DNA of 17,603 bases, from the IMG/VR virus record IMGVR_UViG_2534682108_000015, positions 1 through 17,603 of that record, one strand, 5' to 3'. The position numbers were made by a program, and so were the translations under genes. This document shows, piece after piece, positions 7,506 to 16,672 of the stretch. Below the pieces are notes generated by a model, which was not told the origin of the DNA, searched no databases, and was given only the letters and a program-made list of their open reading frames with translations. Every line of letters begins with the position of its first letter. Positions within the stretch are counted from its first letter, which is position 1. This stretch comes from a virus (taxonomy: Duplodnaviria > Heunggongvirae > Uroviricota > Caudoviricetes).

Positions 7506-7590
7506 TTCTGCCATTCCGGGACGTTACACTGTTCAGGCACCTTATAAAGCGGGTGCCGGGCGTGGAAACCCGGAATTCACCAAAGCGCAC

Positions 7591-7613
7591 AACCGCGCTC
7601 TTGCGGTTTTTTT
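7591..7613 (+). terminator. Intrinsic terminator-like hairpin with T-tract (tR-like) between the small ORF and rha
   Basis: AACCGC-GCTCTT-GCGGTT stem-loop followed by TTTTT (7609-7613). The loop contains the boxA-like CGCTCTT. Confidence 0.4.
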
Positions 7614-7782
7614 GTGTCATGAGCAGCATTACGCCCAAATTATGGTGGGGCGTGCAGGGCCAACTTCGGTTGGGCCGGGTTCTTTGGTGACCGGTATTTC
7701 CACCCCTGTACGTCTCACCACCAATAAGGTCGTGGAAAGCCTTGGTGGTGAGTTATTAAAAATCACCAAAGAGGCTGCCATC

Positions 7783-12426: not shown

Positions 12427-12443
12427 TTTTGTGGAGAAGGTTG

Positions 12444-12806
12444 ATGCGTGATATTCAGATGGTTCTTGAGCGTTGGGGGGCATGGGCGGCGAGTGATAGT
12501 TCTGGGGTAGACTATTCGCCTATAGCTGCTGGGTTTAAAGGGCTTCTTCCCTATACAAGCAAAACACGTCAGGCTTGTTCAGATAGTGATGCATTAATTA
12601 TTGAAGGTTGTCTTGCTCGTCTAAAGCAAAAAAGACCTGAAGAACACTCGCTTCTTGTTGCCCATTACCTATACGGTATCTCTAAAAGAAAGCTCGCTAA
12701 AGCTCGCAAAAAGGATGAGAAAATAATACGCATTGAGATACAGATGGCTGAGGGATTTATAGAAGGTTGTCTAGCTATTCTAAATGTTAGCTTAGATATG
12801 GATTAA
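12444..12806 (+). CDS. Q: Late-gene antiterminator Q (QuuD / phage-21-82 type)
   Basis: 120 aa from ATG 12444 (SD GGAGAAGG). The N-terminus MRDIQMVLERWGAWAA...AAGFKGLLP is characteristic of the small Q family. Confidence 0.8.
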   Translation: MRDIQMVLERWGAWAASDSSGVDYSPIAAGFKGLLPYTSKTRQACSDSDALIIEGCLARLKQKRPEEHSLLVAHYLYGISKRKLAKARKKDEKIIRIEIQMAEGFIEGCLAILNVSLDMD

Positions 12807-12849: not shown

Positions 12850-13302
12850 TTATATGTGGGGTAATATCCAGTTTATTTTCCGCCAGGTACTTGCAAATGA
12901 AACTATTGATACGATCAGGGTCGAGAAACCATATAAGGTTAGGGCGAAATCAAGTCTTACAGAGGTAATGGTGATTTTTTCATTTATAAACATTGCTATC
13001 AGCGGGAAAATACATGCTAATATTAAGGTGACTCCCGTAGATAACAGGTTATGAATAATTTTAGGTAAAATCTTGTTTTGTTTTAAAGCAAAAATAATTC
13101 CATCAGTGCTTGAACTTGCAGAACTGAAGATGGAAATAGCGGCCAATACAAAACCAAACAAAATGCCTGCCACCGTAGATAACACTCCGGCTGTACTTAA
13201 GATATCAGAGTGAGCCATAGGCGCTAGGTATTTCCCAAGCACCCAAGCTAACAGCCCACTGATAACTATGTTAATTAAAACTTTAATAAGCATAATCATC
13301 AT
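12850..13302 (-). CDS. Small four-TM membrane protein (RexB-like architecture); second gene of the AT-rich accessory cassette
   Basis: 150 aa with four clear hydrophobic helices (about residues 3-23, 36-60, 88-108, 120-140). AT-rich. Starts 14 nt after the upstream gene's stop, with AAGGA before the start cluster. Confidence 0.6.
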   Translation of the reverse strand: MMIMLIKVLINIVISGLLAWVLGKYLAPMAHSDILSTAGVLSTVAGILFGFVLAAISIFSSASSSTDGIIFALKQNKILPKIIHNLLSTGVTLILACIFPLIAMFINEKITITSVRLDFALTLYGFSTLIVSIVSFASTWRKINWILPHI

Positions 13303-13316
13303 CCTTAAAAATAAGA

Positions 13317-14249
13317 TCAGATTTCATATTGCTTTAAATACTGACCATGTTCAATTTTAGCACTTATCAAGGCAGTACGCACATCTGTTTCTTTTGCGTA
13401 GCCATCTTTTGTGTTAATGTTTTTTTCACTGATCAGAACTTGATTGAGAAGACTCCTTGAATGAGTATTTTTAGGTTCAGTGACATTAGCTTTACGTAAT
13501 AAGTGAGGAACTTTTTCTATTAATTCCTTTATTCCACTTTTTACTTCATCACTGAGATAACCACGGATTAATTTACGTTGCGATGCTCTACCTCTAAGTG
13601 ATAGTTTTAAATGCGAACCGCCCATCCCAGCCATCATTTCAATCATACTTTTGGAAAATGAATTCGAAAGGTCATAATCCGTTGCGCTAAAATCACGTGG
13701 AGCGGCGAGTGTAATTTCACAGCTACGTAAAGTGCTTCCTGTTTCAAGTAGTTCTTTTACACTTTCTTTTTTCCAAATTGCCTCAAACGCTACAGGTTTG
13801 TTTTCTTCAGAAAAATTGAATAAAAGAAATGCTAAATCGGAAGCTTTAGGTCATAAATGATTTTGAGATAAAACAAGAATGTCTTTCTTATAGTAGTAAA
13901 TAAAATAAGTGCGTTCGACTATATATTTTTTATCATCTAACGGAATATTGTGCTCATCCCAATTTTCATCACCAATATAAGGTAAGTGGAAACCATCACG
14001 AGAGCATGATAGATAACCAAAATAGAACTCCGCCTGTGCGTCTTTTTCTAAGAATACAATCTTTAATTTTTTCTTATCAAACTCAGCGGTATAAGAATTT
14101 TGCGAAGGTGTAACAATGGTTGTATACATTTTGTCAAATGCAAGTTGTGCATTTGATGTAGTTGACTTCGTTCCTGAGGAGCTTTGGAAGAAACCGATAC
14201 GCATTTTTTTTTGTTTAGTTAGTGGCGCGGAAGTGGCTGTAGTAGTCAT
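13317..14249 (-). pseudogene. Cytoplasmic protein of about 311 codons split by one in-frame TGA (13851-13853); first gene of the accessory cassette; RexA-like by position and size only
   Basis: ORFs 13851-14249 and 13317-13646 are in the same frame. The 68 codons between the TGA and the next ATG contain no stop and no ATG/GTG/TTG, verified codon by codon. AT-rich. Confidence 0.55.
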
Positions 14250-14548
14250 TAAAATTACCCTTTATTATCCTTTTGAATCAATGGGTTGTGATTTATTAAT
14301 GATCCTGGGTTCGTTGCATATGCATAATCTATCAAAAAAAACTTACGCGGTCCGCATTTTCTCGTTTACTGTGTTAAGAGTGGTTACTTCGCCACACAGC
14401 TTAAACCCGCCGTCGAGCGGTTTTTTTGTACCTGTAAACCTGGTGCAGTACAGTAAACACGCTGGTGGTCGTGAATACTGACTTTTTATCTTGCTGGCTT
14501 TTTAGACAAGAGTTATTGGTATGTCATGTTAACCAGAAGGGAAAAGAC

Positions 14549-14752
14549 ATGCTAAAACAGCAAGATATGACAGAAATCGCCGCCGCAGTCCTTCACTTCT
14601 TACCTGCTGACAAGTGGGTAACGCCACGCATGATGACGAGAACTACCGGAGTAAGCGAAGCCCGGTGCCAGTTAATACTGACTCAGTTAGTTCTGGCGGG
14701 TCTGGCGAAGGATAACGGCGGGTACGGGAATAAATTCAGACGCTGCCAGTAA
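14549..14752 (+). CDS. Small winged-helix DNA-binding protein (67 aa), divergent from the accessory cassette and upstream of the methyltransferase fragment
   Basis: ATG 14549 with SD AAGGGA 6 nt upstream. HTH-like segment TPRMMTRTTGVSEARCQLILTQLVLAGL. Confidence 0.5.
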   Translation: MLKQQDMTEIAAAVLHFLPADKWVTPRMMTRTTGVSEARCQLILTQLVLAGLAKDNGGYGNKFRRCQ

Positions 14753-14902
14753 TGGCGGTTTCCTGCTGTGAAAATGGGCGGCTGGTGGGTGTTGGTAGCA
14801 CCTGCCAGCCATTCGCTCATGCTTACTGGTCACAAGCGAACCACGGCCCACTGCTTTAGCGCAAAAGCAGAGTGAGCCTACCAGAGTTACGCTTACTGAT
14901 CC

Positions 14903-15310
14903 ATGAAAAATACTGTAAAAATAAACAGTGTTGATTTAATCAACGCTGATTGCCTGCATTTTATTCAGTCCCTGCCTGATGATTCCATTGACCTGATAGT
15001 TACCGATCCGCCGTACTTCAAAGTGAAGCCCAACGGTTGGGACAATCAGTGGAAAGGGGACGAAGATTACCTGAAGTGGCTGGACCAGTGTCTGGCTCAG
15101 TTCTGGCGGGTGCTGAAACCTGCCGGAAGTCTTTACCTGTTCTGTGGACATCGCCTGGCATCTGATATTGAAATCGTGATGCGTAAACGTTTTAATGTGC
15201 TGAACCATATCATATGGGCGAAGCCGTTCAGACCTTGGAGCGCATGCTGTTGTTGCTCACTGGTATTACGAACGGTTTGCTCACGGGGATGTACACATAT
15301 TAATTGTTGA
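14903..15310 (+). pseudogene. DNA methyltransferase (N6A/N4C, DPPY type), 5' fragment only
   Basis: N-terminus carries the catalytic DPPY motif (IVTDPPYF) and IIWAKP; the target-recognition and FxGxG (AdoMet) regions are absent. The reading frame degenerates after about residue 115 and runs into AT-rich DNA. Confidence 0.6.
14911..14930. promoter_or_regulatory. Strong LexA (SOS) box-like palindrome at the 5' end of the methyltransferase fragment
   Basis: TACTGTAAAAATAAACAGTG: CTGT-N8-ACAG with an AT-rich spacer and 11 of 12 outer consensus positions. Overlaps codons 3-9 of the ORF. Confidence 0.45.
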
Positions 15311-15318
15311 TGTTAATA

Positions 15319-15660
15319 TTACGTCATGTTATTAATACAAAATTGCAACGCATCATTCAAAGTATTATAATTATCATTTGTTGCATTTATTATGCCAACA
15401 TTCCTTGTTGGTCTTCCTTCCGTTGAATATTCTATCCAGAATGAGCCGGTGTATTTTGACATTCTATATGTTGCGAATTCTTTTGCATTAATTGGTGGTT
15501 TGGTGCCGTTGAGATCCATTATATAACCACTTTCTTGAATTGTCTTAGAAAGGCAATTGATTATTTCATTTGTCGATATTTCACTGTCGATTTGAGGATG
15601 ATTCACAATTAGCCCCATGCAGAGGATGCTTGAAATTATTATAAAAATATTTTTTATCAT
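15319..15660 (-). CDS. Small AT-rich secreted or membrane-anchored protein (113 aa) with an N-terminal signal-like hydrophobic segment
   Basis: MIKNIFIIISSILCMGLIV... followed by a polar N/T/S-rich body. Very AT-rich, with AT-rich 5' flank 15661-15960. Confidence 0.5.
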   Translation of the reverse strand: MIKNIFIIISSILCMGLIVNHPQIDSEISTNEIINCLSKTIQESGYIMDLNGTKPPINAKEFATYRMSKYTGSFWIEYSTEGRPTRNVGIINATNDNYNTLNDALQFCINNMT

Positions 15661-16010
15661 GATGTCTGTTTTTGTGAATTTTTAGATAGAATGTCTGCTG
15701 TGGAAATATGTATACCTCTTGTGCTCATTTATTTCAATAGATAGTTGAGCACTCATTGTGCTAATGGAAGAAGTTTTTTAATATGGAGTATCATCAAAAT
15801 CACACAATAGTGATTAATATTGCTATTAGATAAAGAAGTATCGCTAACTTTGATTTTGTTGAATTTGTTTTTAATAAAAGTTAGTGTGGTTTATATAGCA
15901 GGCATATGCATGCTGTTTTTAAAGAAACTTATTGCCCCTTTAGCCCTAATGGTCAGAGCGAGAGGTTAATAACCGCCAGGTCGCCGGTTCAAACATGGCA
16001 GGGGCACGAA

Positions 16011-16087
16011 GCGCTGTTAGCTCAGTTGGACAGAGCAATTGCCTTCTAAGCAATCGGTCACTGGTTCGAATCCAGTATGGCGCACCA
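16011..16087 (+). tRNA. tRNA-Arg (anticodon UCU)
   Basis: Manual cloverleaf: acceptor GCGCTGT/ATGGCGC, D-arm GCTC/GAGC, anticodon stem ATTGC/GCAAT with loop CTTCTAA, T-arm ACTGG-TTCGAAT-CCAGT, discriminator A, encoded CCA. Confidence 0.9.
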
Positions 16088-16088
16088 T

Positions 16089-16163
<75 letters not shown>

Positions 16164-16636
16164 TAGAGGATTATGGGACAGTATAGTGAGCATTTTTCTG
16201 CGTTACCTTTCATCGGTAAAAATAAGCATACAACAACTATTTATGCTGGCATTAGCTATGATAGTTATTGGTTTTCTCGGAATGTGTTTATTTGTTTACT
16301 ATATTCTTATCGATAACTGATATTTTTGATATTAATCCGGAGTGGTACAAACAAAAATATGAATTCGCTATGGAATCAGGATGTGTAATAAAAATAATAG
16401 TCACTAAGTTATAGTTTTTTTAAAATGTTAAAAACATCACATTTCATTATGTTGGGCACTGGAGAATACCCAGTCGTTTTGTTAAAAATAATTACGCATG
16501 GTGAATCCCCCTAAGCGGAGGGGCAATCAGCAACTGGTGTTTTGTCACCGACCCTTATCCTTTCTGTGCGCAGGTGCTGATACTGAACTCACCGGGAGGC
16601 ACCCGGCACCATGCAAAATTGTCTACACTACCACTG

Positions 16637-16665
16637 TAAAAAGCCCCTCTCCGGAGGGGCTTTTC
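16637..16665. terminator. Bidirectional intrinsic terminator
   Basis: GCCCCTC-TCCG-GAGGGGC (7-bp GC stem) flanked by an A-run (16637-16642) and TTTTC (16661-16665). Confidence 0.6.
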
Positions 16666-16672
16666 TATGGGC

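Follow-up and report, generated by a model that had tools for sequence, protein, structure and literature searches.

The closest described counterparts of the locus analyzed here belong to lambdoid phages and prophages. Orphan beta-class N6-adenine methyltransferases (Pfam PF01555) are encoded by several of them, including phage cdtI (gp56), mEp460, SfV (orf) and the Stx2c phages. Intact relatives are 349-352 amino acids in length, carry the AdoMet-binding motif I as FMGSG at residue 310, and are encoded by a gene that directly follows Q, PR' and tR'. Stx-type and related prophages also have arrays of tRNA genes (Ile-CAT/Arg-UCU and others) past Q and the methylase. The late regions of lambdoid prophages also hold morons, and those that are AT-rich and independently oriented are often expressed in lysogens (reviewed in PMC8065619).

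The window, by which we mean the whole analyzed stretch of 17,603 nucleotides, is a 100% match to E. coli O157:H16 Res13-Lact-PEA12-26 (NZ_CP062876.1) and is part of a defective lambdoid (lambda-like) prophage at yjjG. Gene order runs from int to Q and then through three antisense ORFs, a 67-aa ORF, a methylase pseudogene, a small ORF and tRNA genes to a nanS-p-like esterase gene and the lysis genes. The locus described here is the late-regulatory region of this prophage, and its features are as follows:

14409..14421, plus strand: hairpin with a T-run that resembles a terminator and precedes the methylase; the homologous stretch in phages SfV and Ayreon is annotated as "terminator"
14903..15241, plus strand: methyltransferase remnant, codons 1 to ~112-113 of a beta-class N6/N4 (N6-adenine) DNA methyltransferase, identified by homology to intact genes
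15242..15310, plus strand: foreign-encoded tail of the remnant ORF, ~22 residues ending in SACCCCSLVLRTVCSRGCTHINC and the stop codon, past the junction at 15240-15243
15243..15318 (76 nt), minus strand: region 3' of the small gene, with 39.5% GC and 91% identity to the MFDS1022581-type copy
15319..15660, minus strand: small ORF of 113 aa, recognized by its homologues, dN/dS, signal-like N-terminus, invariant C36 and C108, and structural model
15661..15933, no strand assigned: AT-rich spacer separating the tRNA array from the divergent small ORF, with 28.6% GC and 85% identity to the MFDS-type copy
15934..16006, plus strand: degenerate tRNA-Ile2 pseudogene, scoring 21.6 bits with Rfam RF00005 against a gathering score of 29; ARAGORN makes no call
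16011..16087, plus strand: intact tRNA-Arg (UCU), from ARAGORN and Rfam
16089..16163, plus strand: intact tRNA-Gly (UCC), from ARAGORN and Rfam

Taken as a whole, the locus is likely to combine a dead methylase remnant, a foreign unit of small gene, spacer and tRNA, and an exported accessory protein as the product of that gene. It represents ordinary prophage mosaicism containing one uncharacterised gene family, with no sign of a new type of system. The new point is the constant pairing of the small gene with a phage tRNA gene, and the finding is mainly of annotation value.

The methylase remnant and its junction

The remnant lies in an ORF (14903-15310, plus strand) encoding 135 amino acids, of which only residues 1 to ~112 are homologous to intact methylases. 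As the initial annotation described, the gene is truncated and keeps DPPY (residues 35-38, nucleotides 15005-15016), which represents the catalytic motif IV (D/N/S)PP(Y/F), together with IIWAKP (residues 103-108). The match to PF01555 (N6_N4_Mtase, E=1.2e-15) covers only positions 1-85 of the 221 in the model. RefSeq/PGAP treats 14903-15247 as a pseudogene ("DNA-methyltransferase, incomplete, missing C-terminus"). Over the first ~112 codons, the remnant resembles the lambdoid orphan methylases (91-97% identity), with DNA identity to intact genes of 93-97% up to the junction, and it also resembles them in its position after Q/tR', its small upstream ORF and its DPPY motif. Unlike them, it is a pseudogene that lacks ~240 C-terminal residues including FMGSG, some two thirds of the gene, and takes its tail from foreign DNA. 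Because the target-recognition region and the AdoMet-binding FxGxG motif, both C-terminal in the beta class, are missing, the remnant is, as judged from its sequence, a dead gene that cannot encode a complete enzyme and would yield at most a 135-aa fusion peptide. Annotations should list the 135-aa "methyltransferase" as a pseudogene, so that its ORF is not expected to cause any methylation. The upstream hairpin is probably the tR' of the late leader, a placement that would make the methylase the first gene of the late operon.

Alignment to intact methylases moves the left breakpoint to ~15242: the last homologous position is at 15240-15243, which precedes the AT-rich start given earlier (15296) by about 54 nt. 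The right end formerly placed at 15960 falls inside the pseudo-tRNA and does not mark a return to native phage DNA. The adjoining DNA was correctly described as foreign in composition, with a GC content of 31.4% in the block 15243-15933 against 46.5% in the methylase remnant and 45.7% in the whole window. The comparison of this slot among relatives that had been proposed showed the block to be absent from LZHX12, 2014C-4423 and phage cdtI. In these closest intact relatives the flanks are 97-98% identical; the module is also absent from Stx2c phages.

Among the 5,426 complete E. coli genomes, nine contain the full module, and in six of these the methylase junction is the same. The junction recurs in ST866, JKHS016, OkiPb strains, CP101800 and the metagenome contig OJJG01000483. 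Insertion of a transposable element is not supported as the cause of truncation: a search turned up neither inverted repeats nor a transposase, and the only feature is a 13-nt direct repeat at 15242 and 15908. No intrinsic terminator was found in the 3' flank of the small gene (fold z-score 0.34).

Replacement or deletion at the junction

At 15240-15243, the remnant is joined to a compositionally foreign unit made up of the antisense small gene, an AT-rich spacer of ~270 nt and the tRNA array. The carriers found all share one junction, and this join inside the methylase gene would go back to one illegitimate event (replacement or deletion) that all of them inherited. The initial annotation proposed a moron-for-gene replacement. 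It was right to the extent that a foreign, moron-like block with an antisense gene is present; its "truncated by insertion" is not supported, since a single deletion in a layout like that of L011 would give the same result.

According to the deletion alternative, there was no insertion: the ancestor had the unit downstream of an intact methylase and lost ~2 kb, from codon ~113 to ~75 nt past the stop of the small gene. We give this explanation substantial weight, somewhat short of an even chance. The required arrangement exists in L011, where an intact 352-aa methylase is followed by tRNA-Ile, tRNA-Arg, a DUF3927 gene, the antisense small ORF, a 268-nt spacer and tRNA-Ile-Arg-Arg. In a second lineage (L019/L020, compared with the intact L013), an independent deletion took away the methylase N-terminus beside another small-ORF/tRNA-Gly unit, and ST866 shows a further loss of the 5' part of the remnant. 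However, the small gene of L011 is only 61% identical to that of the window at the protein level, and alignment of the 3' flank of this gene to the window extends over only ~30 nt. Moreover, no genome combining an intact methylase with a close variant of the unit was found among complete E. coli genomes, species-representative genomes and JGI metagenomes. An intermediate or donor was likewise lacking from complete E. coli genomes, exact-protein look-ups and GTDB species representatives (0 matches), and the JGI metagenome scan returned one match, which carries the same junction.

Pairing of the small gene with a phage tRNA gene

In every Escherichia prophage context, the small gene lies divergently upstream of a tRNA gene, at a distance of 189-307 nt. 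The partner is tRNA-Ile (CAT) in the window (decayed), L005, L011 and L015/16, and tRNA-Gly CCC in L013 and L019/20. Other Escherichia prophages carry the unit at several different places in the interval from Q to the lysis genes, and in each case it runs antisense to late transcription. From these comparisons of sequence, ORF, AT-rich spacer and tRNA form one co-inherited unit that recurs in other prophages. We propose that it moves by recombination in the manner of a moron, the homology being likely provided by the conserved tRNA genes. The pairing suggests how accessory genes shuffle in the Q-to-lysis hot spot, which carries the stx genes in related phages.

The tRNA array of the window matches those of Stx-type and related prophages in position and orientation, and its tRNA-Arg(UCU) aligns closely with that of the intact-methylase relative 2014C-4423. 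It differs in that the tRNA-Ile is decayed, the tRNA-Thr of LZHX12 is missing, and the array leader is a spacer common with the small gene. The pseudo-tRNA aligns to the intact tRNA-Ile(CAT) of LZHX12, L011 and L015; tRNA(CAT) calls were obtained for its intact homologues in L004, L011 and L015. In the window, the anticodon has changed from CAT to AAT, the D-loop contains an insertion and the T-stem is broken. The spacer is more conserved relative to the MFDS-type copy (85%) than is the pseudo-tRNA (72%), and it presumably holds one or more promoters. No strong sigma-70 consensus promoter was found for the small gene; sigma-70-like matches near it are weak and no commoner than in shuffled sequence.

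The unit resembles lambdoid morons in being extra late-region DNA that is absent in close relatives, of deviant composition (~31% versus 46% GC) and antisense to late transcription (PMC8065619). Unlike typical morons, it is tied to a tRNA gene in two parts and abuts a destroyed phage gene, rather than lying between intact ones. A bolder interpretation is that the small gene and its divergent tRNA form a discrete cassette that hops by tRNA-anchored recombination across lambdoid late regions, its product representing a new periplasmic, disulfide-stabilised lysogenic-conversion (or anti-phage) family common to Escherichia prophages, the Salmonella chromosome and IncF plasmids. As a complete package, we consider this doubtful.

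The small protein and its family

Our best guess is that the small protein is an accessory protein acting in the envelope, made in the lysogen from its own promoter and useful to the host, that is, a factor of lysogenic conversion in the broad sense. Any such benefit is not general, given that the family is present in only ~0.5% of complete E. coli genomes; these include 18 further genomes with a ~72% identical homologue. Outside Escherichia prophages, a homologue (WP_000639596-type) is located between yedF and fliE in Salmonella, in a cluster of 797 member sequences, and is probably STM1967. This protein has the same length, a signal peptide, two cysteines and the GxFWI motif, with 30-35% identity, whereas its gene belongs to the chromosome and has neither a prophage nor a tRNA in its vicinity. 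A member of this group is mislabelled as "50S ribosomal protein L1" in one source. Literature searches yielded nothing specific on STM1967, ileZ/argN/argO or comparable morons. The distant orthologue also occurs on IncFIB plasmids. Another family member (P0003) is found in prophage remnants near yccA/hyaA, on 93 contigs. Among 50,697 sequenced phage genomes, only one 1.5-kb Salmonella fragment contains the small gene, which may therefore reside mostly in dead prophages.

A narrower role, as a superinfection-exclusion factor (suggested in the initial annotation) or a receptor-masking factor acting in the periplasm or at the outer membrane against incoming phages, seems unlikely. The late-region position and antisense orientation are typical of lambdoid prophage morons, which are often expressed in lysogens when AT-rich and independently oriented (PMC8065619), and the protein is small and, from its sequence, probably exported. 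Yet it is similar to no PHROG, Pfam, NCBIfam or PADLOC family, it lacks a lipobox, unlike Cor, Llp or Bor, and the gene is absent from sequenced active phages. The distant orthologue, moreover, is a stand-alone gene of the Salmonella chromosome and is also found on IncFIB plasmids. We favor host benefit because that orthologue has become a fixed part of the Salmonella chromosome, away from any prophage, and because the gene stays intact in heavily decayed prophage remnants. Should the protein turn out to affect phage sensitivity or the envelope, the small families known for lysogenic conversion would grow by one. Searches for known superinfection-exclusion, defence and lysogenic-conversion families gave no significant match in Pfam, PHROGs, NCBIfam, PADLOC or PDB sequences; the first four were scanned with both the 113-aa protein and its family members, and the PDB profile search produced only noise (E~0.85).

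The signal-like N-terminus noted in the initial annotation is present: K3 is followed by a 15-residue uncharged hydrophobic run, and residues 1 to ~16-19 resemble a Sec-type signal peptide. The pattern is conserved across the family: the basic and hydrophobic regions are present in all 13 members, and every full-length member has one to three K/R residues, an uncharged hydrophobic core of 11-16 residues and then candidate -3/-1 cleavage sites. These include SAYA|D, LAAA|R and ISA|E, with clear AXA-type sites in distant members. In the subclade of the window, the sole candidate is CMG|L and the aligned -1 residue is Leu, which makes cleavage uncertain; from its sequence, the N-terminus could be a membrane anchor instead of a cleaved signal. 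A lipoprotein was rejected, as the sequence S-I-L-C, with Leu at -1, does not provide the lipobox [LVI][ASTVI][GAS]C; the cysteine is absent in family members P0008, P0016 and P0021.

It is quite improbable that translation begins instead at an internal GTG (codon 19), which would yield a 95-aa cytoplasmic protein and leave the hydrophobic N-terminus untranslated. PGAP does annotate 97-aa products in ST866 and MFDS1022581, with a start that would remove the signal peptide. A G-rich Shine-Dalgarno-like motif also precedes the GTG, with none upstream of the ATG in the subclade of the window, where the Shine-Dalgarno before the ATG is weak or lacking. However, in every homologue down to 26% identity, the 18 upstream codons form an open, hydrophobic stretch that starts with basic residues, some homologues have textbook AXA sites, and some of the more distant members have a good Shine-Dalgarno before the long-form start. 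Likewise, the two invariant cysteines (C36 and C108) suit an oxidising compartment. We recommend that the ORF be annotated with the upstream ATG as its start and its product as a probable exported protein belonging to an unnamed family.

On this preferred start, the protein would carry a Sec signal peptide and be exported to the periplasm, where it is expected to form an alpha+beta domain of ~95 residues, with two helices and five strands, probably pinned by a single disulfide (C36-C108). The AF2 model, built on a 13-sequence alignment, has a pLDDT of 86 (84-86 across five models), with low confidence for residues 1-20 and values above 90 for the domain. The mature part is modelled as a generic beta-alpha-beta4-alpha fold. 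Foldseek searches of a first weak model (pLDDT 70) against the PDB and of the good model against BFVD gave no match at E<0.001. Two-layer folds of this KA1/TBP-like type (KA1 domains, DUF302, the BamC N-domain and Flpp3/DUF3568) have only 2-13% sequence identity, and the fold as modelled is too generic for assigning function.

The substitution pattern demonstrates, at the level of sequence, that the small ORF is a real gene under purifying selection, in agreement with the initial proposal of an opposite-strand gene. Its family comprises 10-13 protein clusters in profile searches, in which identity ranges between 99% and 26%, and the alignment has invariant Cys, Trp and Gly positions, the two invariant cysteines being in the mature part. 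Two giant proteins, each with 19 stretches in the profile search, were excluded: P0014 is a low-complexity repeat artefact by its sequence, and P0017 is assumed to be the same. For all measurable pairs, dN/dS is between 0.06 and 0.64. The window and the MFDS-type copy differ by 23.5 synonymous and 22.5 non-synonymous changes (dN/dS 0.19), beside a pseudo-tRNA that is only 72% identical. That the ORF is a chance open frame in a block of AT-rich, non-coding junk has almost no probability, in that the "hypothetical protein" labels in databases and weak translation signals are contradicted by intact frames in all copies, dN/dS well below 1, a coherent family and a confident AF2 model. The ORF of the window stops two codons earlier than its relatives, through a change from AAA to TAA.

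Prophage setting and the dead methylase gene

The window spans a lambdoid prophage integrated beside yjjG. Positions 14400-16500 match the chromosome of E. coli O157:H16 Res13-Lact-PEA12-26 (NZ_CP062876.1) at 100%; window coordinates equal those of the genomic locus L001 minus 1601. The prophage is probably defective, since RefSeq annotation beyond the window (L001 26451-32908) shows an internal stop in the large terminase gene and a frameshift in the portal gene.

Gene order of the prophage, left to right
Integrase; yfdP/Q/R-like region; repressor and regulators; RusA, KilA-N and DUF968 genes
12441-12806: antiterminator Q
12850-14249, minus strand: three antisense AT-rich ORFs (147, 109 and 132 aa), between Q and a tR'-like terminator
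14409-14421: terminator-like hairpin
After the hairpin: conserved 67-aa ORF
14903-15310, plus strand: methylase ORF, 135 aa
15319-15660, minus strand: small antisense ORF, 113 aa
15934-16006, plus strand: tRNA-Ile2 pseudogene (21.6 bits, gathering score 29; not called by ARAGORN)
Two tRNAs, SASA-family (nanS-p-like) esterase gene, lysis genes

The methylase gene is dead. Its ORF opens in exactly the same way as the DNA methyltransferases (349-352 aa) of phage cdtI (gp56) and strains 2014C-4423 and LZHX12. In these proteins DPPY sits at aa 35, IIWAKP at aa 103 and AdoMet motif I, FMGSG, at aa 310, the motif order typical of beta-class amino-methyltransferases. The remnant keeps the first two motifs, lacks FMGSG, and covers positions 1-85 of 221 in Pfam PF01555, against 1-219 for an intact homologue. 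In DNA alignments it is near-identical to the intact genes up to '...GCGAAGCCGT', shows weaker identity through 'TTGGA', and loses similarity after 15240-15243; its final ~22 residues (SACCCCSLVLRTVCSRGCTHINC) are encoded by foreign DNA. In RefSeq, 14903-15247 is a pseudogene of a methyltransferase 'missing C-terminus'. Non-synonymous differences across the first 109 codons number 4-4.5 between the remnant and each intact gene, versus 0-1 between intact genes, an excess that fits relaxed constraint, though the numbers are small.

The homology end, the PF01555 coverage and the RefSeq call all uphold the truncation proposed in the initial annotation, with its boundaries corrected: the junction lies ~54 nt to the left of 15296, and 15960, the proposed right end, is no junction but falls inside the decayed tRNA-Ile. 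The interpretation is upheld in part: a methylase pseudogene and a moron-like unit are real, the 'insertion' and the proposed function hypothetical. GC content is 46.5% in the remnant, 39.5% in the first 76 foreign nucleotides, 31.9% in the small ORF and 28.6% in the spacer between it and the tRNA. Damage to the pseudo-tRNA includes an anticodon change from CAT to AAT and a disrupted D-loop and T-stem; the D-loop change is common to the window and the copy in MFDS1022581, so decay is older than the split of those lineages. The neighboring tRNA-Arg(UCU) and tRNA-Gly(UCC) are intact.

Compared with LZHX12, whose flanks are 97-98% identical, the window lacks the methylase 3' ~710 nt and a ~290-nt intergenic stretch before tRNA-Ile. 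A 691-nt block stands in their place, and the window also lacks the tRNA-Thr that LZHX12 has between its Ile and Arg genes. Two possible origins both fit these comparisons. One is replacement by recombination with a unit-carrying phage, using tRNA-array homology at the right end and joining illegitimately within the methylase at the left end. The other is a single deletion in an arrangement like that of locus L011, which runs intact methylase, tRNA-Ile, tRNA-Arg, DUF3927 gene, small ORF, spacer and second tRNA-Ile-Arg-Arg array. All carriers found with a methylase junction share the same one, including CP101800 and the metagenome contig OJJG01000483, and a scan of species-representative genomes returned zero matches. 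A 13-nt direct repeat (12/13 identical) has one copy, GCATGCTGTTGTT, at 15242-15254, exactly at the methylase junction, and another, GCATGCTGTTTTT, at 15908-15920, 26 nt upstream of the pseudo-tRNA. Such a pair arose in 0.1-0.8% of random same-composition sequence trials in a post-hoc test; it may be a trace of microhomology used in the junction-making recombination, or chance.

A conserved small gene with a signal-like N-terminus

On comparative sequence grounds, the small ORF is shown to be a conserved coding gene. Ten clusters at 99-56% identity, Escherichia wherever an organism was named, came from a word-indexed search across 5.8 billion proteins; a profile search brought in another three. 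HMMER, run as a full profile search on 1.84 billion representatives, gave 13 matches, among them Salmonella proteins at 26-37% identity, which tblastn placed at one site between yedF and fliE and another on an IncFIB plasmid. Two of the 13 are large proteins matched over 19 stretches each: P0014 is a repeat artefact from its sequence, and P0017 is assumed to be another. All sources annotate the family as 'hypothetical'.

The reading frame is unbroken in every copy. Nei-Gojobori dN/dS for the window is 0.06 against ST866, 0.19 against the MFDS1022581 type, 0.34 against L015, 0.51 against L011 and 0.24 against L013. The MFDS1022581-type comparison comprises 23.5 synonymous and 22.5 non-synonymous changes (pS 0.35, pN 0.08); as an internal control, identity is 72% in the pseudo-tRNA, 86% in the ORF, 85% in the spacer and 91% in the 3' flank. 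In the window, an AAA to TAA change at 15319-15324 (minus strand) ends the ORF two codons earlier than in ST866/P0001 (...NNMT* versus ...NNMTKY*).

The signal-like N-terminus noted in the initial annotation is borne out across the family: every full-length member has 1-3 Lys/Arg followed by an uncharged hydrophobic run of 11-16 residues (mean Kyte-Doolittle 2.4-3.8), with small residues at the candidate -3/-1 positions, a signal-peptide-like pattern at the level of primary structure. Distant members have textbook cleavage sites, namely SAYA|D (P0021), LAAA|R (the Salmonella chromosomal protein) and ISA|E (P0011). In the window's subclade Leu occupies the aligned -1 position and CMG|L is the sole candidate, which leaves cleavage uncertain. 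A lipoprotein reading was rejected, as S-I-L-C is no lipobox and its Cys is absent from several members. For the orthologues in ST866 and MFDS, PGAP chooses a GTG within the frame as the start, which would give a 97-aa product; however, the N-terminal extension remains open and hydrophobic down to 26% identity, and good Shine-Dalgarno motifs precede the long-form start in L013 and L019. The upstream ATG is therefore the preferred start.

AlphaFold2 with a 13-sequence alignment gave a mean pLDDT of 86.1 (five models, 84-86), low for residues 1-20 and above 90 in the domain. The modelled topology is beta(23-25), alpha(30-42), beta(46-48), beta(59-66), beta(69-77), beta(85-91), alpha(95-112). Invariant residues are C36, Y46, E61, G72, W75, I76, L105 and C108; the model puts one invariant Cys on each helix, and a C36-C108 disulfide is putative.

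Coupling to tRNA genes

In all Escherichia prophage contexts the small gene is paired with a tRNA gene, from which it diverges, and is antisense to late transcription.

Small-gene/tRNA units
Window and L005 (MFDS1022581): tRNA-Ile(CAT)-derived partner, gap 273 nt; methylase remnant to the left in the window
L011: tRNA-Ile(CAT), gap 268 nt
L015 and L016: tRNA-Ile(CAT), gaps 270 and 261 nt; L016, like L017, lies close to ompT and an AraC-type gene, whereas L015 has other neighbors
L013: tRNA-Gly(CCC), gap 307 nt; directly after Q, intact methylase further on
L019 and L020: tRNA-Gly(CCC), gap 189 nt; after Q, then a methylase C-terminal remnant (aa 250-320)

In a six-way alignment, the tRNA, spacer, ORF and first ~30 nt of 3' flank are homologous in the window, MFDS, L015 and L011. 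No tRNA lies near the Salmonella homologues. A different unit, with tRNA-Gly(CCC), adjoins the methylase C-terminal remnant in O166:H15 and related strains (L019 5936-7550, L020 5921-7597). As L013 combines this same unit with an intact methylase, the methylase was lost independently in a second lineage.

Of 5,426 complete E. coli genomes, 9 contain the full block (15243-15930). The methylase junction is identical in six of these; ST866-type genomes have a methylase remnant that is cut further, to aa 71 to about 112. In the other three the block adjoins an integrase fragment and belongs to a prophage remnant that lies between yccA and hyaA; the small gene is intact there. This remnant (L005 4826-7403, L021-L028) lies near a tRNA-Ser gene and contains solely the integrase fragment, small ORF, pseudo-tRNA-Ile, tRNA-Arg, tRNA-Gly, a 132-aa ORF and a Lom fragment. 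P0003, the remnant-type protein, occurs on 93 contigs, and a ~72% identical gene in 18 more complete E. coli genomes. Among 50,697 phage records, the small gene was found only in a 1.5-kb Salmonella fragment.

Candidate role and other features

The region is ordinary prophage mosaic decay, together with one uncharacterised family of predicted exported proteins and a gene-tRNA coupling. Expression of the small gene would start in the AT-rich spacer and need no Q-dependent late transcription; its product would be exported with one disulfide and act in the envelope. A host-beneficial accessory role is thinly favoured over a phage-specific exclusion factor, because the distant orthologue is a fixed Salmonella chromosomal gene (a cluster of 797 sequences) and the small gene stays intact in decayed remnants. 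A review (PMC8065619) describes morons as genes of the late region whose composition deviates; often they have a promoter and terminator of their own and do not depend on induction. The unit shares only late-region position and deviant composition with them; neither promoter nor terminator is demonstrated for the small gene, which is tied to tRNA genes and antisense within the late region.

The three antisense ORFs at 12850-14249 make up a second slot for a moron or defence candidate, which has likewise decayed; PADLOC matched none of them. The 132-aa ORF there matches DUF6731 at positions 2-122 of 295 only, like a split or truncated copy of a ~305-aa gene in TD225-C4; orf54 of phage cdtI is of similar size in the same position. 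Between the tRNA array and the esterase gene, 16466-16672 (plus strand) matches the sRNA family STnc100 over its full length, with 123 bits for a gathering score of 47. In the early/immunity region (7537-7725, plus strand), isrK (67 bits) adjoins a C4 antisense RNA (84 bits), a pair whose sequence matches indicate a P1/P7-type antisense-controlled antirepressor module.
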